From: Patescibacteria group bacterium
Lineage (GTDB): Bacteria > Patescibacteriota > Patescibacteriia > UBA9934
Reading direction: 5' to 3'
Length of the DNA: 64,000 bases
Assembly: GCA_041661425.1 (NCBI GenBank)
Contig: JBAZUI010000002.1
Location: forward strand, 38-64,037
Shown here: positions 17,840-54,897 of the stretch, piece by piece
Position numbering within the stretch: position 1 is the first letter of the stretch
Layout of the letters: every line of letters starts with the position of its first letter
Made by a program: the position numbers and the translations under genes
Notes under the pieces: model-generated
What the model was told of the DNA's origin: nothing
Database searches by the model: none
What the model saw: the letters and a program-made list of their open reading frames with translations, nothing else

Positions 17840-18271
17840 ATGGCCAAGCAGACCCGCGAAGAGCGCCAGGAGCTGATGCGCAATTTCGATGACTTCGCCT
17901 ACTGGTTGCGAACGTCCATCCTTGCGGGAGCGGTCACGGCCGAAGACTTCGGTCGCATGATCGACGTACTCCTCCCCGTGACTAAGGCGAGATCGAGCCT
18001 CACCCTACGCATCGATGAGCTTGGGCTCTCGACGCGAACTCTGACCTGCCTGAAAAACAGGGGGGACATCGAGAACGTCGGGCAACTCCTCGAGATGACC
18101 GAAGGAGAGTTGCTGAAGACCAAGGGCTTCGGCAGGAAGTGCCTGAACGAGGTCAAGGAGATCCTCGCGGACATGGAGCTCACCTTCGGCATGATGGAGG
18201 CCAAGACCGAGGTTCCGGACTTCATGCGTGAGCGGCTCCTGTCCGAGGCCCGAAAGCTCAGCGAGCCCTAG
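17840..18271 (+). CDS. Small protein with an RNA polymerase alpha-subunit C-terminal-domain (alpha-CTD, HhH) fold, paralog 1
   Basis: LTLRIDELGLSTRTLTCLKNRGDIENVGQLLEMTEGELLKTKGFGRKCLNEVKEILADMELTFGM aligns with the RpoA CTD consensus (ELELSVRSANCLK..I..VGDLV..TE.ELLKTPNLGKKSL.EIK..LA..GLSLGM). Unique 55-aa N-terminal region. Confidence 0.7.
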   Translation: MAKQTREERQELMRNFDDFAYWLRTSILAGAVTAEDFGRMIDVLLPVTKARSSLTLRIDELGLSTRTLTCLKNRGDIENVGQLLEMTEGELLKTKGFGRKCLNEVKEILADMELTFGMMEAKTEVPDFMRERLLSEARKLSEP

Positions 18272-18424: not shown

Positions 18425-18841
18425 ATGGCCGAGATGACACGCGAAGAGCGCCAGGACCTGGTACACAAGTTCGACGATTTTTACTACTGGATCCGGACGC
18501 TCATTCTCACGGGAATGATCGGGCGTGAGACCGTCGATGGAATGATCAATGGCATCATCTCGATCGAGGCGGAAGCAGGGTTCATGAAGCGTTTTGACGA
18601 GCTCGAGCTCTCAGTACGCTCTCAGAACCTTCTGGCGAACGCTGAAATCCAGTATGTCTACCAGATCGTCTTGATGACCGAGAGAGATCTGATCATGACC
18701 AAGCTCGGTCGGAAGGGCATGAAGGAGATCATGGGGGTCGTCGCAGACATGGGACTCTCCATCATGTTCGATTGGTCCATGCCACACTTCGTCCGTCAAC
18801 AGCTCTGCTACTATATCCGGAAGCTTGTGGGCAAGCCCTAG
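18425..18841 (+). CDS. Alpha-CTD-like small protein, paralog 2 (most divergent)
   Basis: Same architecture; FDELELSVRSQNLLANAEIQYVYQIVLMTERDLIMTKLGRKGMKEIMGVVADMGLSIM. Confidence 0.7.
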   Translation: MAEMTREERQDLVHKFDDFYYWIRTLILTGMIGRETVDGMINGIISIEAEAGFMKRFDELELSVRSQNLLANAEIQYVYQIVLMTERDLIMTKLGRKGMKEIMGVVADMGLSIMFDWSMPHFVRQQLCYYIRKLVGKP

Positions 18842-18996: not shown

Positions 18997-19428
18997 ATGA
19001 CCAAGCCGACCCGTGAAGAGTGTCAGGAGCTGGTGCGCAAGTTCGACGACTTCTCCCACTGGGTCCGTGCGCTCATCCTCGCGGGAGCGGTCACGAACGA
19101 AGACGTCGATCGCATGGTTGATGACTTCATGACGAGCACGCTCGACCCGCGCCTCACCATGCCCATTAGCGAGCTCAAGCTCTCCACCAAGAACCTGGTT
19201 AGCTTGCGGGACCGGAGGCGGGACATCCAGAACGTCGGACAGCTCATCACGAAGAGCGAAGAAGAACTCCTCATGTCCCGGAACTTCGGCCACACGGGTC
19301 AGAAGGAGGTCAAGGAGGTCCTCGCGGACATGGGGCTCTCGCTCGGCATGATGGACGTGGAGGTCGAGGTTCCAGGCTTCATCCGCGAGCGGATCCTGTC
19401 CGAGGCCCGAAAGCTCAGCGAGCCCTAG
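18997..19428 (+). CDS. Alpha-CTD-like small protein, paralog 3
   Basis: ISELKLSTKNLVSLRDRRRDIQNVGQLITKSEEELLMSRNFGHTGQKEVKEVLADMGLSLGMM; C-terminal tail RERILSEARKLSEP is almost identical to paralog 1. Confidence 0.7.
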   Translation: MTKPTREECQELVRKFDDFSHWVRALILAGAVTNEDVDRMVDDFMTSTLDPRLTMPISELKLSTKNLVSLRDRRRDIQNVGQLITKSEEELLMSRNFGHTGQKEVKEVLADMGLSLGMMDVEVEVPGFIRERILSEARKLSEP

Positions 19429-25377: not shown

Positions 25378-26898
25378 ATGGGATTTTATTTTATTCGTTC
25401 GTTTTCGCATCTTGGTGTTGATCCGCACCTTGTCGAAATCGAATGTGATATCGCTCCAGGGCTTCCAAAAACGAATATCGTGGGGCTCCCCGATGCGGCG
25501 GTCACAGAGTCGCGTGACCGGGTAAAATCTGCCATTCGAAATAGCGGTTTCTCTTTTCCCCGATCACGTATCACCATCAATTTAGCTCCGGCTGATATCA
25601 AAAAGCAGGGACCGGCTTATGATTTACCCATTGCGCTCGCCATCCTTGCGAAAATGGGCGTTATCAAAGAGCAACTCCTTGAGCCCTATCTCTTTTGTGC
25701 CGAATTAGCGCTTGATGGGACTCTTCGTCCGGTGAACGGTGTTCTTTTGGGAGCACTCCTTGCCAAGGAACGCGGATACAAGGGACTCGTCCTTGCAAAA
25801 GAAAACGCACAAGAAGCTTCGCTTGTTCACGAGGTGAATGTCTATCCCGTCAAAACACTATCCGAGCTCATCGAACAACTGAAAAATGGGACGCTCATGC
25901 CACATCAATCGGGACATGTATTCTCTGAGGTGGCATCAAGCACTGACTTTGCTTGGGTCAAGGGCCAAGAATATGCAAAACGTGCACTCGAAATTGCCGC
26001 GGCAGGTGGACACAATGTTCTCATGATCGGACCTCCCGGTGGAGGAAAAACCATGCTGGCGCGATCGATTCCATCCATTCTTCCTCCACTCCAACGCGAA
26101 GAAGCTCTTGATGTGATAAAAATTCATTCCCTTGCAGGAATCCTCACGCGTGAACTCATTGAATCGTCCACACGTCCGTTTCGCGCCCCTCATCACAGCG
26201 CTTCATCGGTTGCTTTAATTGGCGGGGGAACATGGCCACGGCCGGGAGAGGTCTCGCTCGCGCATCACGGGGTGCTCTTCTTGGATGAATTCCCTGAATT
26301 TCCACGATGCTCAATCGAGAACCTACGCCAGCCACTCGAAGATGGAGTTGTAACGATCTCGTGAGCTTCCGGAACCCTCCAATTCCCAGCCTCATTCTCA
26401 CTCATTGCCGCCATGAACCCATGCCCCTGCGGTTTTTTTGGTGAAATTGGAGCTCAAGAATGTACTTGCACACAAAAACAATTATCGCTCTACGAACATA
26501 AAATCTCCGGGCCAATTTTTGATCGTTTTGATTTATGCGTTCGTGTAAATCGTGTCCCGTTTGAGAAACTAGATGTGGAAGGGGAGCAAGAATCATCAAA
26601 AATCATCCGAGAACGAGTGATTAAAGCTAGAAATATCCAATTGAAACGCTATGATTACGGTGTCTTTAAGACGAATGCTGGGCTTTCATCATCGCATCTT
26701 TCAACATACTGTTCCCTTGAACCGAACACAAAAAAACTGCTTCGCGCCGCTATCGAAACTTCACAACTCTCTGCACGGTCCTATACGCGCATCCTTCGTG
26801 TTGCCCGCACCATTGCCGATCTTGCCGCAAGCGAGCAAATAAAAGAATCGCATCTTGCGGAAGCGATTCAATATCATCCAAAACGGATGCTCCGCTAA
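25378..26898 (+). pseudogene. comM: Mg-chelatase-like AAA+ protein YifB/ComM, interrupted by an in-frame TGA at 26362-26364
   Basis: ORFs 25378..26364 and 26413..26898 share a frame; VTIS*ASGTLQFPASFSLIAAMNPCPCG aligns with the ComM segment IHLSRTRAKITYPARFQLVAAMNP, so the TGA replaces a conserved Arg codon (CGA>TGA). Confidence 0.8.
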
Positions 26899-33646: not shown

Positions 33647-35044
33647 ATGAACACCCACGAATTGTGGCAGTCCGCACTTGGGCAGCTTGAACTCAAGTTG
33701 AGTAAGGCCCATTTTACAACTTGGTTTCGCAATACTTTCATTGCGGATTATTCCGAAGGGCATGTCATTATTGGGGTTCCAAACACCTTTACAAAAGCCT
33801 GGCTCGAAAAAAAATATCATCGTGACATTCTCGATTGCATTCAAAACATCACAGAACAACACATAAAACAGCTTGTCTATCGGGTGGAGACTCGCCCAAA
33901 CGAGCCCCAAACGATTATTTTCGGTCAAATTCCTGCAACGACTCCACTCAAAACAGAAGAACCGCGTGAGGACTATGGTTTTACGCCTTCTTCCTATGAA
34001 TCAAGTCCCTCACACGGGACGATCATCATCAACCCAGCCTATACATTTGGAACATTTGTCGTCGGCAAACACAACGAGCTAGCTCACGCGGCTGCTCAGG
34101 CGATTGCCGCCCAGCCAGGAGGGACTTATAACCCTCTTTTTGTCTACGGAGGAGTTGGCCTCGGAAAAACACACCTTTTGCACGCCGTTGGAAACGCAAT
34201 GCTTGAGCGAACCCCTAATGCGCATATCCTTTATGTGACGTGCGAGAAGTTCACTAATGACTTTATTCATGCCGTTCGTAGTGGGAAAGGGAAGGAATTC
34301 AAAGATCTCTATCGAAACGTTGACCTTCTCCTTATTGACGACATCCAATTTATTACCGGAAAAGAGGGAACTCAGGAAGAATTTTTTCATACCTTTAATT
34401 CCCTGCACCAGGAAAATAAACAAATCGTCATTTCCTCCGATCGCCCACCAAAAGCGATTGCCGCATTGGAAAAGCGTCTTCTTTCGCGTCTTGAATGGGG
34501 TATGCTCGTCGACATTGGGGCACCAGATCTTGAAACACGCATTGCCATCCTTCAAACAAAGTGCCAAAAACGCTCCATTGAACTTTCACGGGAGATCCTT
34601 CACTTTGTCGCTTCCAATATCTCATCCAATGTCCGTGAACTCGAAGGAGCACTTAACAAAATCATTGCGTTCCATCAATTTAAAAACATCGAACCTTCTT
34701 TAGAATCTGTAAAACCCCTCATCGCAAGTTTTGAGTTGAGCTCCATTCGAAAAACAATCTCTCCAAAACAGATCATCATCACGGTTTCCGAATATTTCGA
34801 CATTGCCGTCAACGATGTTTTGGGAAAAAGCCGTGAAAAACGCCTCGCATTTCCACGACAAATCATCATGTTCCTCTTACGAGAAGAAATGAAAAGCTCT
34901 TATCCAACAATCGGCACAGAGCTTGGAGGTCGCGATCATACCACTGCAATGCATGCCTATACAAAAATACAGGGCTTGGTAAAAAACGATGAGCAATTAA
35001 AACGTGATCTTGACCTCATCAAGCAGAAACTTTACTCAGGTTAG
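33647..35044 (+). CDS. dnaA: Chromosomal replication initiator DnaA
   Basis: Walker A GGVGLGKTHLL, sensor/box VII, C-terminal DNA-binding HTH (LGGRDHTTAMHAYTKI). Confidence 0.95.
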   Translation: MNTHELWQSALGQLELKLSKAHFTTWFRNTFIADYSEGHVIIGVPNTFTKAWLEKKYHRDILDCIQNITEQHIKQLVYRVETRPNEPQTIIFGQIPATTPLKTEEPREDYGFTPSSYESSPSHGTIIINPAYTFGTFVVGKHNELAHAAAQAIAAQPGGTYNPLFVYGGVGLGKTHLLHAVGNAMLERTPNAHILYVTCEKFTNDFIHAVRSGKGKEFKDLYRNVDLLLIDDIQFITGKEGTQEEFFHTFNSLHQENKQIVISSDRPPKAIAALEKRLLSRLEWGMLVDIGAPDLETRIAILQTKCQKRSIELSREILHFVASNISSNVRELEGALNKIIAFHQFKNIEPSLESVKPLIASFELSSIRKTISPKQIIITVSEYFDIAVNDVLGKSREKRLAFPRQIIMFLLREEMKSSYPTIGTELGGRDHTTAMHAYTKIQGLVKNDEQLKRDLDLIKQKLYSG

Positions 35045-35296
35045 TGGATAGAAGGTGAATATCCCCATCCAAAAAGGTGGATAAAACTCCGCATAACTCA
35101 GGGGATAAGAAGGAGATAACCAAATGAAAAATTTATCACTTACTTCATCCCCCTTAACTGCACCACTCCACACAGCAGTCATACACAAACGCTCTAACAG
35201 AATCATCGCGCTGCCACAAGCTCAAATGAGTTATCCACGCTATCCACACCCCTTACTATTATTACTGTCATATATAACTAATTAATTTTCTTCCCT
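35043..35296. other. oriC core: at least five DnaA boxes (GTGGATAGA, GTGGATAAA, GGGGATAAG, TTATCCACG, CTATCCACA) followed by an AT-rich unwinding element (35259-35295) abutting the dnaN start
   Basis: Boxes read at 35043, 35076, 35101, 35231 and 35240; the stretch ttactattattactgtcatatataactaattaattttc is about 85% AT. Confidence 0.7.
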
Positions 35297-36421
35297 GTGA
35301 AATTTTCATGCACCAGAGAGAATCTTCATCAAGGACTCTCCATAACAAGTCGCGTAGGAGGAAAAAATGTTAATCTTCCAATCCTTAGTAATGTCTTAGT
35401 TCGAGCTGATGGGGGAGGAATAAAGTTAATATCAACGAATCTTGAAATTGCGATCTCTTGTTCTATCCGAGGAAAAGTTGATCAAGATGGAGAATATACG
35501 GTTCCTGCAAAACTTTTCTTTGATTATGTGAATCTTTTGCCAAATGAGCGTGTTGATGTTGATTTACTTGATAATGCGATTTTTGTTGGTTGTGGCAATG
35601 CAAAGACGAAGATCCACGGAATTCCTGCAACGGAATTTCCACTTATTCCTCCAGTTGGAGGCGGGACCGTCTATTCAATTGGTGTTGCAAATTTCTCACA
35701 AGCACTTTCGCAAGTTTTATTTGCTGCTGCCACAAATGAATCACGTCCTGAACTCTCTGGGATCCTCCTCAACTTCGATGAACAGGGAAAACTAATATTC
35801 GCCGCTACTGATAGCTATCGCCTCTCTGAAGTTGAATTAAAGCTTCCAGTGCCCCAAGCAAATAAAGTCATCGTACCGCAACGGACACTTTCGGAGCTAA
35901 ATCGTATTTTGAGTATTTTTCGCGATGATGTTGAAGCACCAAGTGCTGTTGAAATTCGTTTATCCGATAATCAGATTGTCTTTCAGTATGGTTCAGTAGA
36001 GCTTACCTCGCGCGTGATTGAGGGATCCTACCCCGATTATAAGCAAATTATCCCAACGCAAGTAAAGACCGAGGTTCTGTTGGATTGCGCAGAGTTTCAA
36101 CAGGCGGTAAAAACCGTGAGTCTCTTCTCAAAAACAGGACTTTTTGATGTGACCCTTGGGTTTGATGCCACAAATCAGCAGATGGAGGTATCGGCGTCAG
36201 ACAAAACACGTGGAGAAAATACGGTGATATTGAAGGCGGCGATTCAGGGGGTGGAAAATCGTGTTGTTCTCAACTTTCGGTATCTTTTGGATGGACTCAA
36301 TGCGATTTCTTCCTCACAAATCACATTTAAGATGATTGATGGCATGAATCCCTGTCTTCTTTTGCCAAAAGAAATGCCCAATGAATCGTTCCAGTACATC
36401 ATCATGCCAATTAGGCAATAG
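35297..36421 (+). CDS. dnaN: DNA polymerase III beta sliding clamp (GTG start)
   Basis: MKFSCTRENL...LPILSNVLVRADGGG aligns with DnaN N-termini; 374 aa. Confidence 0.9.
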   Translation: MKFSCTRENLHQGLSITSRVGGKNVNLPILSNVLVRADGGGIKLISTNLEIAISCSIRGKVDQDGEYTVPAKLFFDYVNLLPNERVDVDLLDNAIFVGCGNAKTKIHGIPATEFPLIPPVGGGTVYSIGVANFSQALSQVLFAAATNESRPELSGILLNFDEQGKLIFAATDSYRLSEVELKLPVPQANKVIVPQRTLSELNRILSIFRDDVEAPSAVEIRLSDNQIVFQYGSVELTSRVIEGSYPDYKQIIPTQVKTEVLLDCAEFQQAVKTVSLFSKTGLFDVTLGFDATNQQMEVSASDKTRGENTVILKAAIQGVENRVVLNFRYLLDGLNAISSSQITFKMIDGMNPCLLLPKEMPNESFQYIIMPIRQ

Positions 36422-40943: not shown

Positions 40944-41402
40944 TTAGGAACGATGTTCTTGAAGAATCCGAATGATTTGATCGGTTGGGAGGGAAGCGAG
41001 ATTTTTTGGCACGAGAGCCGAAATGCGAGCGGCAACATCGGCATGCATGGCGTCCTGGATTTCGACTTTATGCGCTTCAGGAGCGCAAAGGACAATGTCA
41101 AGTTCACGATTCGCCTCGACTTCTCGTAATAAATAGTCGCTTAAATTTTTATAAAGTGCCAATCGAAGGCTATTTTTAATTTCATCAATATCCGGTGGCC
41201 CATCATTCGGGGTTCCGGATCCGCGTCCTTGAATTTCAGGTTTTTGGATGAGTAAGAGGTTCACTTCGTCGATGGTATGATCTTTTGCGCGGAAAATTTT
41301 TGCTGATTCGTTATTTGTGACAACAATGAGGGTCTCATGCTCGTAGGCAGAATAGTGTTCGGAGATTTGCATATAAAGACATTGTAACAAAAATTTACTC
41401 AC
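40944..41402 (-). CDS. Hypothetical protein (possibly host-attachment / eRF1-like family)
   Basis: Only a weak resemblance, recalled from memory; no motif certain. Confidence 0.3.
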   Translation of the reverse strand: MSKFLLQCLYMQISEHYSAYEHETLIVVTNNESAKIFRAKDHTIDEVNLLLIQKPEIQGRGSGTPNDGPPDIDEIKNSLRLALYKNLSDYLLREVEANRELDIVLCAPEAHKVEIQDAMHADVAARISALVPKNLASLPTDQIIRILQEHRS

Positions 41403-46963: not shown

Positions 46964-46997
46964 GAGCGCCGAGCGAGTTCGCTCGGCGTTATTTCTT
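46964..46997. terminator. Bidirectional terminator cgccgagcga-gt-tcgctcggcg plus T run, shared by PGI/PMI (+) and the GC-rich gene (-)
   Basis: 10-bp GC inverted repeat; marks the left boundary of the GC-rich island. Confidence 0.6.
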
Positions 46998-48731
46998 GTG
47001 GCGGCACGGAAGCTTTGTGCAGCCGGCGTAGGGGTCGTCCTCCGGGAGCGTGCCCTCCTCCTCGGCGCGTTCGTACGAGTAGTCCTCGTACGCTGGGACG
47101 ATCGTATTGTCCCAGGTCCAGTGGACCGAGGCGCCAAAGACCGTGATGCCACCACCGCAGATGATGAAGGCAACGGCCACGGCAACTCCCATGGCGAAGA
47201 TTCGGACCACGCGCTTGCTCATTTTCTTGTCTTCCTCGAAGGTGTTCCGCCACCCGGTTCGGGAAATCAGATCATTGAGCATCGCGACGAAGCAAATCCC
47301 GATGCAGACGAGTCTCGTTGCGTACATCGCGAACGAGGCGTCCGCAAGGGCGGAGAAGAGGATCAGGAACGCGGCCGTGAGTCCAGCGGCCACGATCGAG
47401 ATGCTGGTCGCGGTTCGGTGGAACCAGCCCGTGTGGTGCTTCTCGGGCATATCGAGACGGAGCACCCGATCGACCACGACCTCGGGCACGGGGATCCCAA
47501 GAGCCCTCAGGCTCTTCCCGAATTTGGAGAGCATCCGGTCGAGGATCCCTGGCTCGTCCACCCGCTTTCCAGTCAGCAAGGTGGTGATGCCCCGGAGAAC
47601 ATGCCCAGGAATCGGGAACAGGAGCCGTCCCACGTACAGGGTGCTAAGTCCTGCCACGAGGAGGAGAGTCACCCATCCGGATTCGGGGGCATAGAAGCCG
47701 ATCAAGAGGCCCAGGAACCAGATGATGGCTCCCAAGCCACCCGCGCCGGCGGCGAGCGCGACGATGGCGGCGAGTACCATGATTGCCGCAATCATCAGCC
47801 CTGCGAGGATAGTGATGTTTTTGGGGCTGACGACCCATTTCACCCAGGCCTTGATGGCTGGCACATCGACCCAGATGTCCGCGAGGTCTCTGGCGCGGGC
47901 CTTGAGACTTGGGCTGTGGTGGGCCATCACCGGGAAGTACACTTCGCCCCCGTACTTCATGGGATCCTGAAGGATCATCGCGGGCGTAACGCCGGCATCG
48001 ATGAGGCCTCGAAGCGCCGGCTTGGCCCAGGCCGGGTTGTAATCCATGAAGTGGCGCATGGCCTCGTAGGATTGGCTTGCGATTCCATCGAGACCTTTCA
48101 TGTGACCGTCTGCTGCGGTCGAGGCGGGGCGGTCGAGGTAGATTGCGTCCCAGAGGGCCTGGAACAGGGCCGCGAAGAGTCGGCGCTCGTCATTCTCGAG
48201 CACCTCGAAGACGAGCACCGGAATTTCCTCGGGCTGATCGGCCGTGCCCCTGAGGAATCCTTTGCGAATGGCATCGAGGAGCATGGAGCGGCGCACCGTA
48301 GCGCCTTCTACGCTCTTGCCCTCGCGTCGGGCGTTCTCGAGGCTCTCCTGGATTCCGTACCCCAGGTTCGTGAGTACGGTGTCAAGAATCCCGGCCGCCA
48401 GTCGGTTGTGGCGGCGAACCTTCTGGTCCACCACCTTTCCGAGGACGTTGAAGACCCATCCATAGGCACCGGGAGGCACCACAGCCAGAAGATCAGCGAC
48501 GCCAAGGATCGACCCAACGAGCCGGACTCCTCCGGCAACGTCCTGTTGCTCGATCCAGCGCTCGAAGGCCTCGCCGACTGCTGTCTGGAAGACGCCCTCG
48601 GCCGCTGTTTTTTCAGCTGGATTTTTGGCCTTGGCAACGCCCTCGGCCTTGGTCTTGAAGGATTCGACAAAGCGATCGAAAAAGGACATGGTGTCTCCAA
48701 TTTTGTTTTCGGTTGTGAGGGAACGATTCAT
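46989..48731 (-). CDS. High-GC (GC3 about 85%) hypothetical protein: ~300-aa soluble N-terminal domain plus C-terminal multi-TM domain; likely horizontally acquired
   Basis: Coherent TM helices and normal amino-acid composition on the minus strand, whereas the plus-strand ORF 46962..48971 is an R/G/E/D-rich antisense artefact. Probable start is Met14 (48692), preceded by GGAG. Confidence 0.6.
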   Translation of the reverse strand: MNRSLTTENKIGDTMSFFDRFVESFKTKAEGVAKAKNPAEKTAAEGVFQTAVGEAFERWIEQQDVAGGVRLVGSILGVADLLAVVPPGAYGWVFNVLGKVVDQKVRRHNRLAAGILDTVLTNLGYGIQESLENARREGKSVEGATVRRSMLLDAIRKGFLRGTADQPEEIPVLVFEVLENDERRLFAALFQALWDAIYLDRPASTAADGHMKGLDGIASQSYEAMRHFMDYNPAWAKPALRGLIDAGVTPAMILQDPMKYGGEVYFPVMAHHSPSLKARARDLADIWVDVPAIKAWVKWVVSPKNITILAGLMIAAIMVLAAIVALAAGAGGLGAIIWFLGLLIGFYAPESGWVTLLLVAGLSTLYVGRLLFPIPGHVLRGITTLLTGKRVDEPGILDRMLSKFGKSLRALGIPVPEVVVDRVLRLDMPEKHHTGWFHRTATSISIVAAGLTAAFLILFSALADASFAMYATRLVCIGICFVAMLNDLISRTGWRNTFEEDKKMSKRVVRIFAMGVAVAVAFIICGGGITVFGASVHWTWDNTIVPAYEDYSYERAEEEGTLPEDDPYAGCTKLPCRHKK

Positions 48732-49080
48732 TCGGTTTTGAATCGAAATGAACCCCTATTTTTAGCAAAAAAATGGGGTTTTGTCAATGATTGCCACAGG
48801 GAGCTCCACCCCCTGACCCCGGCCTGCTTTTCTTGTGTAGGGGCGACCGGCCGCCTGCCTGCCGGTAGGCAGGGTCGCCCCTACATGCCTGTTTTTCCGG
48901 CGGGCCGTGTTTGCTTTATAAACGTACGGGCGGGTCTGCGACCCGCCCCATACAGAATTGAATCGCCGTAGGGACGTAGCCTGCTACGTCCATTGATTAG
49001 AGACGGTCTGCATTGACGAAAGCTCATTTTTTTGCTACGCTCTTGTGTTCCGGTTTTCCACCGGATAAGGGAGATTTACC
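48732..49080. promoter_or_regulatory. Divergent promoter region of the GC island with three GC-rich palindromes (48837-48884, 48928-48948, 48972-48991) and two similar promoters (TTGACA-17-TAAAAT on minus; TTGACG-17-TACGCT on plus, both with cATTTTTTTGCTA)
   Basis: Inverted repeats GTAGGGGCGACC..GGTCGCCCCTAC, GGGCGGGTC-tgc-GACCCGCCC and GGACGTAGC..GCTACGTCC read directly. Confidence 0.5.
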
Positions 49081-49917
49081 ATGTTCCAGACGCTTTTCGT
49101 GGTTCTTTTTATCCTGTTCTCTTCCGTGGCCGAGGCCGCCTGCCTCGCCTGGGGAGCGGGAACGGTGCTCGGGTTCGAGGCTGCGGTCTGCACCCACGAA
49201 TACGTGGGTGCTTACTGCGCCGAGACCCACCGGGTGGTGGTGCGCCTGCCGAGCGGGCGTGTGGCCGAAAAAATGGCCTGCGTTCGCACGGTCTCGTATG
49301 TGAGCCATGCCTACGTTCACACCTATGCACCGCGACCCGTGTACCACCCCCCGGTGCACTATGTGGCCCCGAGGCCTTACTATCAGCCTCGGCCCGCATA
49401 TCATCCGCCGCAGGTCGTCTATACCACTCGGCCGCACTGGGTGCCAACGAGGAGCATCCCGCAGGCGCCGATGGTGTCGGTGACGCTTCGCGAGGAGCGT
49501 CGAGTGGCCTCACCGCCCGCGCCGCTCGCGGGTGTGAACCTTGGGGGGCCGACCACGCTTGCACAGGCGCGGGTAGTGCGTGAGCAACGCGCAAGCGAGG
49601 CAGTTGCTTCGGCTTCATCCCCGCAGCAAACGCTCGTGGTGATGGCGGCCGCCCCGAGTGCGAGCGCGGCCGATCTTGAATCGGCGCGTCGCGAGAGCGC
49701 CTCAGCTCAGGCCGAAGTGGCACGGCTCCGCGCCGAGCTCGAGAGACTCAAGCTCGAGCGCGATCAGGCGCTCCGAAACCTCGAGGCGCTCCGCGCCGAG
49801 AACACAACGCTCGTCGACCAGAGCCGAGAGATCCTCGCTCAGCGCGCCGAGTACCTGGCGCAGGCCAAGCTCCGCGCCGAGAGGATTGAGGAGCTCGAGC
49901 GGCGGCTCGAGAACTAG
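49081..49917 (+). CDS. High-GC secreted protein: signal peptide, Cys-containing N-terminal region, Pro/Tyr/His-rich repeats (YHPP, PRPYYQPRPAYHPP), C-terminal ~90-aa coiled coil
   Basis: SD GGGAGA-7-ATG; third-codon-position GC very high; followed by a 22-bp perfect palindrome gggcggacccgcgggtccgccc (49918-49941). Confidence 0.55.
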   Translation: MFQTLFVVLFILFSSVAEAACLAWGAGTVLGFEAAVCTHEYVGAYCAETHRVVVRLPSGRVAEKMACVRTVSYVSHAYVHTYAPRPVYHPPVHYVAPRPYYQPRPAYHPPQVVYTTRPHWVPTRSIPQAPMVSVTLREERRVASPPAPLAGVNLGGPTTLAQARVVREQRASEAVASASSPQQTLVVMAAAPSASAADLESARRESASAQAEVARLRAELERLKLERDQALRNLEALRAENTTLVDQSREILAQRAEYLAQAKLRAERIEELERRLEN

Positions 49918-49996: not shown

Positions 49997-50374
49997 TTAG
50001 GAAGCGTCAACGGATAGGCCGATTTGTGTCATCACAAAATTTGTTATCGCATAAGCTGCAAGAATGATGATAAGACCAATCACAGCGTTCATAAGGAGAG
50101 TTTGTGCTTTCTTTGTTTTTTCAGCCTCACCGCCTGCTGTCATCCAAAGGAATCCGGCATAAATCGTGAAAGCAAGGAAGACAATGCCAAGGAAGCTCAA
50201 GAGCGTATAGATGATTTGTCCAATGAATGATGGAAGGTCCATATTGGAGAGCCCGCTATTCCCTTGAACGTCACTTAGCCATCCGTCTCCCAATGGCGTT
50301 TGGGCGAATGTTGGCGTGACTCCGGCAAAAATCGGCAGAACCGTTGCAATGGACGTGGCAATGATTTTTTTCAT
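49997..50374 (-). CDS. TrbC/VirB2-like (T4SS-pilin-like) small membrane protein, paralog A
   Basis: Signal peptide; TM1 ...IYAGFLWMTAGG; loop EAEKTKKAQ; TM2 AVIGLIIILAAYAITNFV. Confidence 0.55.
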   Translation of the reverse strand: MKKIIATSIATVLPIFAGVTPTFAQTPLGDGWLSDVQGNSGLSNMDLPSFIGQIIYTLLSFLGIVFLAFTIYAGFLWMTAGGEAEKTKKAQTLLMNAVIGLIIILAAYAITNFVMTQIGLSVDAS

Positions 50375-50400
50375 ATTGAAATAATTTATTTAATCACATT

Positions 50401-50799
50401 TTATAGGTTGGTGGTTGTTACACCTCCATATTTTCCTGACACTAAGTCTATCACAAATGCCGCGATGGCATAAGACGCAAGAATGAGGATAAGCCCAATA
50501 ACAGCATTAATAAGAAAACTTTGCGCTTTTTCCACCTGTTCTTTTTTTCCACCGGCTGTCATCCAAAGGAACCCGGCATAAATATTAAATCCCAATAGAA
50601 TAATTCCCACGATTGAAAGAACGGAATAAATCAACAACGAAGTAATCGAAATGATATTTTGATTTTCCAGTTCGTTGCCGTAGATTTGTGTTCCAGCGGA
50701 TTCTAACTGATCGTCAAAAATATCTGCAAGTTGCGCTTGCGCCATTTGAGGAAGAAAACCGCAGGAAAGACCAAAAAGGAGAACGAGAAGGTATTTCAC
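50401..50799 (-). CDS. T4SS-pilin-like paralog B (the ORF track extends to 50937; probable GTG start 2 nt after the stop of paralog C)
   Basis: VKYLLVLLFGLSCGFLPQMAQA signal peptide; IYAGFLWMTAGGKKEQVEKAQ...AVIGLILILASYAIAAFV. Confidence 0.5.
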   Translation of the reverse strand: MKYLLVLLFGLSCGFLPQMAQAQLADIFDDQLESAGTQIYGNELENQNIISITSLLIYSVLSIVGIILLGFNIYAGFLWMTAGGKKEQVEKAQSFLINAVIGLILILASYAIAAFVIDLVSGKYGGVTTTNL

Positions 50800-50801
50800 A
50801 A

Positions 50802-51173
50802 TTAGGAGGTTAGCATGGTAAGGACAAACTGTGTGAGGGCGTACGCCGCAATAACAATGAGAAGCCCGATTACGGAATTCACAAGAATATCCTGTGCTTT
50901 TTTGACGTGCGTTTTTTCTCCCCCGGCTGTCATCCAAATGACACCAGCGTAAATAGTGAGGACCAGGAAAATAACGCCAAGAATGCCAAGAAGGGGAGAA
51001 ATAATGCGCGCGCCGACAAAGCTTCCGATGTCTTGCGTGGCATCGGAACTATCAAGAGAACCATAAATCACTTCACCGGTTTCTGTAAGTCCAGTACTGT
51101 CCGTACTGATTTGCGCAAAAGCAAAACCTGGAAAGAGCAAGAGAATCCCCGTGAAAACTATCAGTTTTCGCAT
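50802..51173 (-). CDS. T4SS-pilin-like paralog C (the ORF track extends to 51278; probable start MRKLIVF)
   Basis: IYAGVIWMTAGGEKTHVKKAQ...SVIGLLIVIAAYALTQFV. Confidence 0.5.
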   Translation of the reverse strand: MRKLIVFTGILLLFPGFAFAQISTDSTGLTETGEVIYGSLDSSDATQDIGSFVGARIISPLLGILGVIFLVLTIYAGVIWMTAGGEKTHVKKAQDILVNSVIGLLIVIAAYALTQFVLTMLTS

Positions 51174-51219
51174 AGCGAAAGGTCCAAAAATCTTTGGACC
51201 AATCGTCGTGTGAAAACAA

Positions 51220-51627
51220 TTACGCGGTTGCGTTGATGACTGAGTCGAGAACGAACTGCGTGATGGCGTACGCGGCAAGAATAAGCGCTAAACCAATCAC
51301 ACCGGCAATGAGAAGCTTTTTTGCATCCGAGACCTTATCGTCATTTCCACCGGCTGTCATCCATTTGAATCCGCCAATAAGAACAATGATGACAGCAATG
51401 ATTCCAAGGAAACCAAGAGCGACTTTAATAAGGTTTCCGATTGTCTCTTTGAGGTCAGCGGTTCCAAGGCCGGAAGCATCGCTAAAATCTTCATCCAAAA
51501 GATCGGAAGTGTCGAGTTCGGCGTGAGCAATCATTGGCTTAGCGATTTGAACAGCGCTCAAGAGCGAGATAGCAAGGGTCATGCCGAGTCCAATGCTCAA
51601 GGTGTAGCGAAGGAGAGGTGTGATCAT
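51220..51627 (-). CDS. T4SS-pilin-like paralog D
   Basis: IGGFKWMTAGGNDDKVSDAKK...GVIGLALILAAYAITQFV. Confidence 0.5.
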   Translation of the reverse strand: MITPLLRYTLSIGLGMTLAISLLSAVQIAKPMIAHAELDTSDLLDEDFSDASGLGTADLKETIGNLIKVALGFLGIIAVIIVLIGGFKWMTAGGNDDKVSDAKKLLIAGVIGLALILAAYAITQFVLDSVINATA

Positions 51628-51656
51628 AGGAAAGATTAATTATTTATTATTTATTT

Positions 51657-51995
51657 TTAACCGGCGACATTGCCCGAAAGGACCGCATTGAAAATGGCAT
51701 CCACCGCAACATAGGCTCCTGCAATCAAGATGAGTCCAAGGGTGGTCCAGATAAGAATGGATTGCCCTTGTTTGATTTGCTCAGGTTTTCCCATTGAGAT
51801 GATCCAAAGAAGCCCGCCGTACATGAACATCACAAGCGCGACGGTTCCAAGAACCGAAAGGGCGCCCTGGATAATACGTGCCGCAATGAGGCGGGGATCG
51901 GTAATACCCAATGGATTCGTAAGTGCGACCGCTTGTGCGATGCACGGGAAGGCGATGAGCCCTGTAGAAAGAATAAATGGGAGGACCTTTTTCAT
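51657..51995 (-). CDS. T4SS-pilin-like paralog E (the ORF track extends to 52100; probable start MKKVLPF)
   Basis: MYGGLLWIISMGKPEQIKQGQ...TTLGLILIAGAYVAVDAIF. Confidence 0.5.
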   Translation of the reverse strand: MKKVLPFILSTGLIAFPCIAQAVALTNPLGITDPRLIAARIIQGALSVLGTVALVMFMYGGLLWIISMGKPEQIKQGQSILIWTTLGLILIAGAYVAVDAIFNAVLSGNVAG

Positions 51996-52020
51996 AAAAA
52001 CATTATACCAAAGATATCCA

Positions 52021-52542
52021 TTATTCAGTGGTGGTATTGAGGATATCATGCGCATCGCCGGAACCGGCATTATCGAGGATGTCGGAAATGGTTTCCTCAC
52101 CTTCGGGCGATTCTCCTGTTTTGAGGACGCTTACCACAAACGCGATAATGGCATAAGACGAGAAAATAATGACGATTCCAATCACCGCGCCAACAATCGC
52201 TTTCTGGCCGGTTTTAATGGCCTCGGGTTTTCCTTGAGCCGTGATCCAAAGGAATCCTCCATAAATAAAAACGCAAAGAACCGCGGTGCCGCTGATGCCA
52301 AGAAGAAAGACGGAAATATTCACGACAACCTGCAAAAGGTCATCGAGCGTGCATTCGCCGGTGTCGCGGCATGCGCAATCATCGTCAGCTCCTGTGCAGA
52401 TATTTGCATAAATCAATCCTTGATCCATGATGTCATTGTATTGTTCTCCAACCGTCTGCGCTTGCGCGGTTGGCAGAAAACAAAACATCCCGGTGCAAAG
52501 AACCGACGCAAAGAAAATTCCAAGACGTTTGGCCAAAGCCAT
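52021..52542 (-). CDS. T4SS-pilin-like paralog F with Cys-rich acidic mature N-terminus (the ORF track extends to 52581)
   Basis: IYGGFLWITAQGKPEAIKTGQ...AVIGIVIIFSSYAIIAFV; CTGADDDCACRDTGEC segment. Confidence 0.5.
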   Translation of the reverse strand: MALAKRLGIFFASVLCTGMFCFLPTAQAQTVGEQYNDIMDQGLIYANICTGADDDCACRDTGECTLDDLLQVVVNISVFLLGISGTAVLCVFIYGGFLWITAQGKPEAIKTGQKAIVGAVIGIVIIFSSYAIIAFVVSVLKTGESPEGEETISDILDNAGSGDAHDILNTTTE

Positions 52543-52637
52543 AATTAACTGCAGTATAGCAAATCCAAGAGCGAGGCTCAAAATAAAAACACACAGCTTG
52601 GAAAAAGTGTGTGTTTTTTTGTGAGTCGTTTGGTGAG

Positions 52638-54026
52638 CTAGTACGTTTGGCTGACTTTTTGCGCGGCGTCATCGATGGCTTCGTCGCCCTCGACCGAACC
52701 GTCGAGCATTTGTGTTATTAAGTCGCGCAGGGCCTGCTCCGCCACCTCAATATCATTCCCAAGATACCAACTTTTTGCCGTGAGAGTCTGTTCGGCAAAC
52801 ACTCCAAGCTCCGGATCGTCAAGATCGTTCCCAATGAGCGATCGGAGTGCGGTTGGTTTATTGGCGGCCTCAAGATAATTGGTCACCTGATCCTCGTCGG
52901 CGGCAAAGAGAATAAAATCCCAAGCCCAATCAGAGTGCTCCGTATTTTTTGCAACGGTTTCAATCCAATAATTGGCGAAATTTACTTCTTGACCGCCATC
53001 GATTTGTGGAAGTTTACTGATGCTGAAATTGAGTTTTGGTGCGGCCGTTCGAACGAGTGGGATGTAATAGCTGTATCCAAGCATCATGGCGGTTTGTCCG
53101 CTTGTGAACGCATCAAAGGAGTTGGAGTATGAATCATTCCAGGTGTAAACCTCTTTTGTTGGATTGGCAAAATCTGTGTAAAAACGCACGGCATCAAGCC
53201 CGGGGTAAACGTCTTCTCCGGCATCATCGGGAACGAGATTGAACGTGACTCGGCCGCGATCATCGGTCATGGCTGTGCCATTTTGCATCATGAGGATGGA
53301 GAGAATATCACCAGCGCGTTCAACGTTTTCAGCGGTTCCCAATGCAGCGCCCGATTGGTCGACTTCACCTTCAGCATTGTAAGTTGTGAGGGCGATCACA
53401 TCATTTTGGAACTCGGTCCAGGTGGTTGGGGGAGTGGCGATTCCTGCGGCGTCAAGCAGATCCTTATTATAAAAGAGTGCGAGGGAATCAACGGAAAGCG
53501 GAAGCCCGAAAATACGGGACTCAACATCAGAATTATCATCCGCCTGATAATCGCGAACCACATCGAATGCAATTTGCTCTACAAACGTTGCTTCCAATTC
53601 GCGGGCGGTCATGGTGGGTTTTTGAACGGCCACGTTTACGGTTTCGCGTTTAACTGTTCCTTGAGTTTGGAGTTCGGATACGGTGATTTGAGATGGCATG
53701 GGTTGCATCAAGCCCTGATATTCGCCCATCCAGGTATTGTGCACGGAGAAAATATCCGGGCCTTTTCCTTCGGCAAAAGCACGCACGAGTTCATCCCGAT
53801 ATTCATCGTAGCGAAGTTCACGATAATCAATGGAAACATTCGGGTGGAGCGTCTCATAGGCATCAATTAGGGGTTCGTATGCATTTGCATCATCAAAAAC
53901 TCCCCAAATCGTGAGGGTTAACTCCTCAGCCGTGGTGGTTGTACCACCGCCAAGACAGCCTTGGCCGGTTGTCACGAGGAGCGAAGCAAGCGCTAAATAA
54001 CTCAATGGGCGTAAAAATCGATGCAT
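52638..54026 (-). CDS. ABC transporter substrate-binding lipoprotein (family 1, sugar-type); no cognate permease or ATPase in the window
   Basis: Lipobox TTGQGC; SBP_bac_1-like sequence (LTIWGVFDD..., ...FSVHNTWMGEY...). Confidence 0.75.
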   Translation of the reverse strand: MHRFLRPLSYLALASLLVTTGQGCLGGGTTTTAEELTLTIWGVFDDANAYEPLIDAYETLHPNVSIDYRELRYDEYRDELVRAFAEGKGPDIFSVHNTWMGEYQGLMQPMPSQITVSELQTQGTVKRETVNVAVQKPTMTARELEATFVEQIAFDVVRDYQADDNSDVESRIFGLPLSVDSLALFYNKDLLDAAGIATPPTTWTEFQNDVIALTTYNAEGEVDQSGAALGTAENVERAGDILSILMMQNGTAMTDDRGRVTFNLVPDDAGEDVYPGLDAVRFYTDFANPTKEVYTWNDSYSNSFDAFTSGQTAMMLGYSYYIPLVRTAAPKLNFSISKLPQIDGGQEVNFANYWIETVAKNTEHSDWAWDFILFAADEDQVTNYLEAANKPTALRSLIGNDLDDPELGVFAEQTLTAKSWYLGNDIEVAEQALRDLITQMLDGSVEGDEAIDDAAQKVSQTY

Positions 54027-54027
54027 A

Positions 54028-54897
54028 TTATTTCATGAGTTGTTCGAGGTATTGTTTGAAATCTTCGCCAATTTCCGGGTGTTTGAGTCCCAACTCAACC
54101 TGGGCGCGAAGAAAGCCAAGTTTATTTCCACAATCGAGACGATTGCCTTTCATGACTTTGCCATACATGGGAATCGATTGTTTGAGAGCTGTCACAAAAG
54201 CATCGGCCAGGCGAATTTCACCATCTTTTCCCGGTTCCTGGGTTTTTAGAATGTTCATGATTTCCGGGGTGATTACATAATGCCCTGGCGCAATAAAATT
54301 GGATGGGGCATCTTCGGCTTTTGGTTTTTCAACAAAAATATCGATTTTCAAGACGTTTTTCTGTATCATCTCACCCCCGACAACGCCGTAACGTGAGACC
54401 TGATCGTGAGGGACCTCAATAAGGCCGATGACCGGTGCTTCATATTCTTCGTAAGTATCAAGAAGTTGTCGCATCCCAGGCACCTTTGCATCGAAAATAT
54501 CATCGCCAAAAAGAATAGCAACAGGCTCGTCCGGTCCCACAAAAGGAATCGCGGAAAGGAGAGCGTGTCCATCTCCCAATGGTTTTGCTTGGCGTACAAA
54601 GGCGAATTTGGCTAATTTGCCAATGGATCGAATTGTTTCCAGCTCTTGAAGTTTATTTTTTTGCTCCAAGCGATATTCAAGCTCGAAGTTGCGGTCAAAA
54701 TGATCCTCAATGGCGCGTTTGCCATAGGAGGTGACGAAAATGATTTCTTCAATACCAGAATTTACAGCTTCTTCCACGATATATTGAATAATTGGCTTAT
54801 CAACTACGGCAAGCATTTCTTTTGGCTGGGCTTTTGCCGCCGGGAGAAATCGGGTTCCCAATCCCGCAACCGGGATAATGGCTTTTTTGACCTTCAT
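54028..54897 (-). CDS. galU: UTP-glucose-1-phosphate uridylyltransferase
   Basis: [38 protein letters not shown]. Confidence 0.9.
   Translation of the reverse strand: [289 protein letters not shown]

Follow-up and report, generated by a model that had tools for sequence, protein, structure and literature searches.

What do six different genes for one kind of small pilin-like protein do side by side in an ultrasmall bacterium, when no secretion gene is recognised around them? The question is raised by a window of 64,000 nucleotides (nt) from a Patescibacteria group bacterium (metagenome-assembled genome GCA_041661425.1, contig JBAZUI010000002.1, positions 38 to 64,037 of the forward strand), which is the whole stretch analysed here and to which all coordinates below refer unless a related locus is named. 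The original prediction for this window described six tandem minus-strand paralogs between 49997 and 52581 as small membrane proteins resembling the VirB2/TrbC pilins of type IV secretion systems (T4SS), and read their variable N-termini as the diversification of a surface filament subunit or adhesin. The six genes are present, at 49997-52542, and encode proteins of 112-173 amino acids (aa). With moderate confidence we interpret them as a VirB2 array of the Uhrbacteria/ABY1 type, whose products would be exported, would assemble into a heteromer and would be polymerised by a T4SS of the VirB4 type, encoded elsewhere, to give a structure resembling a pilus or lining a channel at the interface with a host.

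The gene models of the array, six consecutive minus-strand open reading frames (ORFs) within 49997-52581, were set by inspection of start codons. Paralog F (52021-52542) comes first in the operon, begins with ATG and encodes 173 aa; it is followed by paralog E (51657-51995, 112 aa), whose short mature N-terminus opens with an LTNPLG motif, then by D (51220-51627, 135 aa), C (50802-51173, 123 aa), B (50401-50799, 132 aa, with a GTG start) and finally A (49997-50374, 125 aa), the last in the operon. From F to A the intergenic spaces measure 25, 29, 46, 2 and 26 nt; the close contact predicted between C and B is correct, the stop codon of C ending at 50802 and the GTG of B beginning at 50799. Database entries from the source contig of 81,588 bp, which are labelled 'Patescibacteria group bacterium', have the same lengths as A, B, D and F (125, 132, 135 and 173 aa; the entry for B is P0010), and the entry for D is named 'pilin'. 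Paralog A also occurs, together with a neighbouring gene for a 278-aa protein, on an independent 1.7-kb Logan contig. A consensus scan places a promoter-like site (TTGAGC-17-TATACT with TG, minus strand, 52553-52581) just upstream of the ATG of F, which is weak evidence, as such sites in this region do not exceed the number expected by chance.

A common core aligns across all six proteins, and hydropathy gives each of them three hydrophobic segments, a signal peptide and two transmembrane (TM) helices. Every signal peptide has an A-x-A-type cleavage site (AQA↓Q, AHA↓E, FA↓Q), which mostly leaves an N-terminal Gln, and the mature N-termini are acidic segments of 11-35 residues with a net charge of -3 to -8, E being the exception. 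The first helix, TM1, ends in the consensus GxxW(M/I)(T/I)(A/S)xG and is followed by a short turn with nearby lysines and then by TM2; the residues invariant in all six are the G and W of 'GxxW', the G of 'TAGG' and the Y of 'AAYAI'. The original prediction gave all members both a shared layout and shared motifs. The layout does hold in all six, but the motifs are exact only in A, B and C and degenerate in the others, D having LIGGFKWMTAGG and no KAQ, E having WIISMG and F having WITAQG. The Cys-rich segment that had been ascribed to one paralog is real and belongs to F, which consists of an AQA↓Q signal peptide, an acidic N-terminal segment with four Cys, the TM hairpin and a C-terminal tail that is again acidic. 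The TM-coding segments recur in the DNA every 371-427 nt with 60-78% identity, and for this reason the paralogy is real and not a chance pattern. Pairwise identity between the window paralogs is 27-47%, and a DNA-level repeat comparison revealed neither recent gene-conversion tracts nor long identical stretches among them.

Assignment of the array to a family proceeds from Pfam PF18895 (T4SS_pilin), which is matched by all six proteins with E-values of 1e-8 to 7e-5. Its gathering score is 26.6 bits; A (31.0), B (27.6), D (35.5) and E (27.7) lie above this, while C (25.3) and F (23.3) fall just below it, both being clear paralogs of the other four. The closest NCBIfam model for five of the six is NF045849 (pilin-like), with E-values of 4e-9 to 5e-3. 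A profile search recovers more than 3,000 homologs; the named organisms among the matches listed are all Patescibacteria (Uhrbacteria, Falkowbacteria) or unclassified 'bacterium', and many of the close database homologs carry both PF18895 and PF04956, the TrbC/VirB2 family. For a more remote comparison, the family alignment (A2, 109 sequences) was set against a set (A3) of seven annotated VirB2/TrbC genes from MPF-T conjugative plasmids, collected by tblastn with Agrobacterium VirB2. The two profiles align by hhalign with 80% probability and an E-value of 1.4e-5 over 61 columns, spanning the mature N-terminus, TM1, the turn or loop and TM2. In a local rerun the real alignment scored 32.2, whereas the reversed alignment reached 12.7 and none of 40 block-shuffled controls, which preserve the hydrophobic layout, exceeded 18.4. 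Judged by these profile comparisons, PF18895 membership and a remote homology to VirB2 are supported, and the VirB2/TrbC-like identity proposed for the array is upheld.

Two other origins were considered for proteins of this size. A search of PHROGs, made as a check for holins or a phage origin, returned no match for any of the pilins. Type IV pilins carry a class III prepilin signal, a short basic leader cleaved in the context G↓F/M-x-x-x-E, and a single hydrophobic helix at the N-terminus; the type I A-x-A signals and the two further TM helices speak against a type IV pilin or competence pseudopilin here, and the Pfam scan of the six proteins gave no match to the pilin N-methylation family.

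In the AlphaFold 2 (AF2) model of paralog D the signal peptide forms a helix, the acidic segment is disordered, and two helices (residues 59-91 and 96-134) joined by a 4-residue turn make a tight hairpin, with a predicted local distance difference test (pLDDT) score above 90 in the core. Because a signal peptide and an exposed N-terminus are followed by a two-helix hairpin with a tight, Gly-rich turn, the pilin layout implies a membrane topology with both the N- and the C-terminus outside (N-out/C-out), and such a topology would account for two kinds of fusion found among the homologs. There are natural single-chain double pilins (P0001-P0006, P0009, P0015, P0049 and P0056), in which two modules are joined by a linker of about 30 residues, implying that neighbouring modules lie next to one another and that their N- and C-termini face the same side of the membrane. 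There are also giant surface proteins with the module at one end: the whole pilin module is N-terminal in proteins of 600-3400 aa and C-terminal in others, which would fit the N-out/C-out topology together with surface display.

Komeilibacteria, Falkowbacteria and others possess pairs of proteins that each open with a complete pilin module (signal peptide, TM1, loop and TM2), one member being 576-973 aa long and the other 1900-3400 aa. Such pairs occur at the related loci L031 (7080-18946), L032 (9980-20195) and L038 (7996-19918), and further at L041, L043, L044, L049, L050, L059, L060 and L075; on the complete chromosome OZ246408.1 a pair (L038) coexists with a five-gene array (L082). The fetched loci repeatedly include genes for His-tRNA synthetase and signal peptidase I, which stand beside the pairs in the examples checked.

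The six types were also followed across genomes. We compared 80 related loci from species-representative genomes and three more obtained through protein look-ups; these were picked by pilin similarity and so are phylogenetically clustered. They provide 61 arrays, of which 54 have an intact 5' end and 52 have enough upstream sequence for the comparisons below. The best partner of a window paralog in a relative is the gene in the same position, with a conserved order F-E-D-C-x-A. Against the close relative L003, same-position scores are 173 bits for F, 140 for E, 216 for D, 142 for C, 125 for B and 180 for A, and against L004 they are 129, 89, 153 and 107 bits for F, E, D and C, compared with 42-96 bits between paralogs. 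The partners concerned include L3_1 and L4_1 (F), L3_2 and L4_2 (E), L3_4 and L4_4 (C), L3_5 (B) and L3_6 (A); A is 72-73% identical to L3_6/P0013 of a relative. An F-type gene opens 48 of the 54 arrays with an intact 5' end, the series F-E-D opens 28 and F-E-D-C opens 19, while the D type can be confidently assigned in 58 of all 61. The comparison of paralog copy number that had been suggested gives six as the commonest array size (24 of 61).

D is the most conserved type, with 54-78% identity between genomes. Of the 107 database homologs in alignment A2 the majority share 53-78% identity with D, and their consensus retains the N-terminal acidic segment. The F type has a motif of its own, C-x(n)-C-x-C-R-x-x-G-x-C-x-L-x-D, which is present in 15 of 44 F-type proteins and in none of the other types. 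The proposal that variable N-termini reflect diversification therefore stands in one respect and fails in another: they do differ between paralogs, but between orthologs, as the D type demonstrates, they are conserved. Since the types are orthologous position by position in divergent genomes, we take the comparison to argue for six ancient types in a conserved order, which would be non-redundant subunits of a single assembly rather than variation cassettes.

The array keeps company with two genes upstream. Directly upstream of paralog F, on the same strand, lies a gene for a family 1 solute-binding protein (SBP; 52638-54026, 462 aa) with an N-terminal Cys motif, TTGQGC, and matches to SBP_bac_1 and SBP_bac_8. 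It is a divergent carbohydrate-type binding protein of the lipoprotein kind, and the nearest NCBIfam models, which are carbohydrate SBPs, match it far below their cut-offs. Upstream of this gene, again on the minus strand, is that for GalU, UTP-glucose-1-phosphate uridylyltransferase (54028-54897; TIGR01099, 325.8 bits). An SBP ortholog stands directly upstream in the same orientation in 45 of the 52 arrays, with gaps of 0-143 nt, and in 35 of the 52 galU precedes it, no more than 2.5 kb upstream of the array. The order galU-SBP-pilin holds down to SBP identities of 32-38% and across genome GC contents of 28-63%, while the other neighbours (PGI, Wzy_C, a flippase and SpoIID) shift place and orientation among relatives; no ABC (ATP-binding cassette) permease family is found among the recurrent neighbour clusters of these loci. 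The SBP gene is probably co-transcribed with the array or functionally linked to it, and the two co-oriented genes together suggest that the array is coupled to the capture of sugars or to envelope or pilin glycosylation.

The neighbourhood of the array looks rich in glycosylation functions, with galU, PGI, Wzy_C, the flippase and candidate glycosyltransferases downstream. The last of these come from seven loci that lack the GC-rich genes described below (L039, L054, L061, L062, L065, L070 and L079), where a gene no more than about 2 kb downstream encodes a protein with 8-10 TM segments and a length of about 500-600 aa, accompanied in five of the seven by one for a protein of about 240 aa resembling glycosyltransferase family 2 (GT2); both were judged glycosyltransferase-like by eye only.

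In proposing how such an operon might work, we suppose that the six proteins would be exported by the Sec pathway, lose their signal peptides and be pooled in the cytoplasmic membrane. From there the six subunits would co-assemble into one heteromeric structure, with D as the candidate major subunit; F and the remaining four would have specialised roles, as minor subunits or adaptors. As VirB2 pilins are, they would be extracted and polymerised by a chromosomal, MPF-FATA-like T4SS (VirB4, VirB6 and PrgI) encoded elsewhere, and the product would be a pilus-like filament or a channel lining at the point of contact with the host cell. The T4SS link in this scheme is drawn from homology and from published work in another class of the phylum. 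VirB4 is present in 2,417 of 3,035 Patescibacteria genomes (PMC12102498). In Southlakia epibionticum ML1 six PF18895 genes (SEML1_0014-0019), encoding proteins of 103-185 aa, are all essential, and they lie divergent from the genes for VirB4 (0008), PrgI (0010) and a VirB6-like protein (0013) (PMC10633639, Wang et al. 2023). A review has speculated on a pilus conduit for uptake from the host, treating a Patescibacterial T4SS pilus as a possibility only (PMC12857230).

Several results weigh against this interpretation and should be considered together. The literature cited here contains no report of a T4SS pilus having been seen in Patescibacteria. The search with hidden Markov models of the T4SS_pilin and TrbC families that had been recommended as a check found four proteins above the gathering score of the former but none for the latter: PF04956, with a gathering score of 27.9 bits, is matched below threshold by D (19.9 bits, E-value 8.7e-4) and F (19.0 bits, E-value 1.6e-3) and by none of A, B, C and E in the Pfam scan, so that on profile scores all six appear to fall outside PF04956 in the strict sense. 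The NF045849 cut-off of 40 bits is not reached either, the best score being 36.1 bits (A), and E has no match to that model. A sequence-profile search of the PDB found no pilin. When the D model was searched against the PDB with Foldseek only generic helical hairpins were returned, the best being the ATP-synthase c subunit (E-value 0.6), and no conjugative pilin stands in the top 50, for the fold is too simple to discriminate.

Genomic context adds to these points. The original prediction saw no VirB4, VirB6 or VirD4 in the window, and no VirB4, no VirD4 and no recognisable VirB6 was found in its 64 kb, where the large ORFs encode PolA, PNPase, H+-PPase, a PBP, surface proteins, DnaA and DnaN. 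A large VirB4-like ORF with a Walker A motif is likewise absent from the 10 kb around each of the 80 related loci, and on this account operon-level linkage to a T4SS is absent in the lineage; the conserved partner of the array is the SBP gene and not a T4SS gene. One feature of the context is in favour of the T4SS interpretation: the array lies about 14 kb from dnaA and dnaN and from the minimum of the cumulative GC skew, and in several Patescibacteria classes T4SS genes have likewise been published as lying near dnaA.

These absences invite a different explanation, that the VirB2 fold has been recruited to a T4SS-independent heteromeric membrane complex of 12 TM helices which, with a co-transcribed SBP, serves as a docking platform or import channel for host sugars. 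The persistence of the SBP gene while other neighbours are shuffled, its orientation and short distance from the array, the lack of a recurrent ABC permease and the lack of a T4SS gene within 10 kb of related loci would all be expected of such a complex, and the top structural match, though not significant, is itself a ring-forming membrane hairpin. Yet a complex of this kind has no precedent, and no SBP is among the genes given, in the available portion of that source, for the six-gene array of Southlakia, which adjoins VirB4, PrgI and VirB6-like genes (PMC10633639). Pilin modules on giant extracellular proteins indicate surface display rather than a channel, the adjacency of SBP and pilin genes may reflect nothing beyond a co-expression operon, and its frequency was counted among loci that similarity of their pilins had brought together. 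We therefore regard this explanation as unlikely. A bolder form of it, in which the six hairpins have detached from the T4SS altogether and with the SBP form a new kind of uptake device for host sugars, either a filament or a heteromeric channel that the SBP supplies, seems to us distinctly unlikely; were it true, the cell would be fed by an SBP-pilin operon in place of a classical ABC importer. In a weaker form, the idea could be that a fixed six-subunit stoichiometry defines a heteropolymeric pilus unlike known conjugative pili.

Quite apart from the question of the motor, the six genes might be interchangeable variants of one major pilin, kept to alter the cell surface for evasion or for switching between host strains, a role proposed for VirB2 paralogs in Bartonella and Anaplasma and also suggested in the case of Patescibacteria (PMC12102498). 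It is true that the exposed N-terminal segment is the part most divergent between paralogs, and that their mutual identity fits that of the published variable arrays. However, types that are conserved by position, that score higher with orthologs than with paralogs and that recur in the order F-E-D-C do not behave as cassettes; the N-termini of the D type are conserved throughout the 107 database homologs in A2, gene-conversion tracts and long identical repeats were not seen, and the architecture is neither invertible nor one of silent cassettes, with one promoter-like site before F and short gaps thereafter. Moreover, the six Southlakia genes are individually essential (PMC10633639). Variation in this sense we hold to be very improbable. 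Scarcely credible is the proposition that these are unrelated small two-TM proteins (holins, bacteriocin-immunity proteins, or type IV pilus or competence pseudopilins) with a pilin-like hydrophobicity: the fold is a generic helical hairpin and spurious profile matches are common for small TM proteins, but the VirB2 profile-profile match beats composition-preserving controls, PHROGs contributes no match, the signals are of type I and not class III, and the homologs exceed 3,000, with those named among the matches listed being Patescibacteria or unclassified 'bacterium'.

The interpretation as a heteromeric VirB2 array matters beyond this genome. Patescibacteria account for much of the bacterial diversity that is still uncultured, and in the only species tested genetically a T4SS with pilin genes is essential. 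The comparison narrows the hypotheses, in that ancient, ordered and non-redundant types point to a heteromeric structure and not to antigenic variation, and it reveals that in Uhrbacteria-like lineages the operon travels with the genes for a sugar-binding protein and GalU and not with a secretion ATPase. Whether the array depends on VirB4, and whether SBP and pilins interact, bear on how these epibionts extract nutrients from their hosts.

On its downstream side the array adjoins a segment at 47-50 kb with 59-64% GC, compared with about 45% elsewhere in the window. The original prediction had the array abutting a GC-rich island; the adjacency is as described, but the segment is not an island peculiar to this genome. 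A GC-elevated segment occupies the same place in relatives, with 58-63% GC in L002 (flanks about 45%) and 64-70% in L004 (flanks about 53%), and many other related loci show one beside the array. Because it is syntenic in relatives, the segment is, on this comparison, not a foreign insert confined to the source genome. In the window and in relatives it encodes two proteins, one secreted and about 200-350 aa long, the other a membrane protein with 5-8 TM segments and a length of 530-850 aa. The former is here a 278-aa secreted or coiled-coil protein (49081-49917, plus strand, convergent with the array) with a third-position GC content (GC3) of 0.77, 25% identical to the protein in the same position in L002, L2_299, and with no match in Pfam, NCBIfam or PHROGs.

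The membrane protein is represented by a 580-aa protein (46989-48731, minus strand) that is apparently polytopic, with an all-helical N-terminal part and a hydrophobic C-terminal half; its GC1/2/3 values of 0.63/0.44/0.77 favour the minus frame over a plus-strand ORF. It is 28% identical to its L002 ortholog, L2_632, whereas the flanking genes are 70-79% identical, and it has only 8 homologs in 1.84 billion representatives, the full-length ones being without a Pfam domain. As a candidate VirB6 it is neither shown nor excluded: it has no Pfam or NCBIfam match, a word-indexed search returned only the protein itself, and the AF2 model is unusable (pLDDT 55). The GC excess of the segment is carried by third codon positions, with GC3 of 0.77-0.90 compared with 0.41-0.58 in the genes for the pilins, SBP, GalU, PGI, PolA and PNPase. 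This GC3-rich, fast-diverging gene pair keeps its position also at L002 (10455-13401) and L004 (11797-15377); such a hypervariable syntenic locus could have arisen from a recombination hotspot, through biased gene conversion or by repeated replacement.

A 27-nt inverted repeat, 89% complementary, lies at 48763-49037 in the space that separates these two divergent GC-rich genes. Its arms are two back-to-back, near-consensus promoters (of the type TTGACA-17-TGcTAAAAT), and the same arms lie only 10-23 nt apart in relatives (L002 11347-11410; L004 13853-13955). An invertible promoter was considered at this position and rejected, since the arms are the same back-to-back promoters that relatives have in close proximity. 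In the window they are split by a 221-nt GC-rich insert with three hairpin-forming palindromes, identified by eye, and this insert may represent either a small element that has been inserted or a structured RNA.

Elsewhere in the window, dnaA and dnaN (33647-36421) lie at the turning point of the GC skew, which has its minimum near 35-36 kb, and the window therefore spans a probable replication origin. Three tandem paralogs on the plus strand (17840-18271, 18425-18841 and 18997-19428) encode proteins of 138-143 aa with GC3 of 0.76-0.87, whose only recognised domain is the RNA polymerase alpha-CTD (PF03118, E-values 1.6e-18 to 5.6e-11); stand-alone alpha-CTD proteins in tandem are unusual. A Mg-chelatase-like ATPase of the ComM/YifB type is split between two plus-strand ORFs 48 nt apart, 25378-26364 covering positions 1-138 of the Mg_chelatase profile and 26413-26898 covering 156-206 and the C-terminal domain; the split may reflect a frameshift, decay into a pseudogene or an error of assembly. 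Finally, a 152-aa protein (40944-41402, minus strand) matches baeRF_family12 and Host_attach ('protein required for attachment to host cells'), and is conserved in the close relative L002 (18972-19400) and in a cluster present at six loci.

The features of the array, tandem pilin genes of divergent sequence in a host-associated lineage, have analogues in other systems. VirB2 arrays have already been described in Patescibacteria, 441 of them with 2-11 genes in 383 assemblies, their paralogs having a mean identity of 25% and a maximum of 54%, and they are most abundant in Microgenomatia and Saccharimonadia (PMC12102498, Quinonero-Coronel et al. 2025). With six tandem genes of 27-47% identity the window array fits that definition. 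The published neighbourhoods were analysed around virB4; the fixed order F-E-D-C, the linkage to SBP and galU and the separation from virB4 are not found in the available portion of that source, where the term 'Solute-binding' does not occur. A close parallel is with the Southlakia genes. Both are chromosomal arrays of six tandem PF18895 genes for proteins of about 100-185 aa, some also matching PF04956, in a Patescibacterium, and in both the paralogs are divergent in sequence and alike in structure. They differ in that the Southlakia array, whose genes are essential, divergently adjoins genes for VirB4, PrgI and a VirB6-like protein (PMC10633639), whereas the window array follows galU and the SBP gene with no T4SS gene in 64 kb.

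The likeness to the VirB2/TrbC pilins themselves, such as the T-pilin of Agrobacterium (PF04956), consists in small size, a long signal peptide cut after A-x-A, mostly with an N-terminal Gln, a two-helix hydrophobic hairpin and profiles that align over 61 columns. Unlike them, the window proteins fall under the Pfam TrbC threshold and have no adjacent virB genes, and they are six distinct subunits where VirB2/TrbC systems have one major pilin and VirB5; a further difference is that the host is reported to be a monoderm (PMC12102498). The virB2 paralog arrays of Bartonella and Anaplasma are likewise tandem amplifications of VirB2-like genes in host-dependent bacteria (PMC12102498); however, they are thought to provide antigenic variation, while the paralog types in the window are ancient and conserved in order. 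A more distant analogy is with Mbov_0395/MMCAP2_0565 of Mycoplasma integrative and conjugative elements (NF045849), pilin-like two-TM proteins from a conjugation system of a wall-less or monoderm cell; these are encoded by a single gene within the element, whereas the window has a chromosomal six-gene operon whose products score under 40 bits. Thus the kind of array is already known in the phylum, and it is the order of its types, the linkage to SBP and galU and the separation from the motor that constitute the lineage-specific context.

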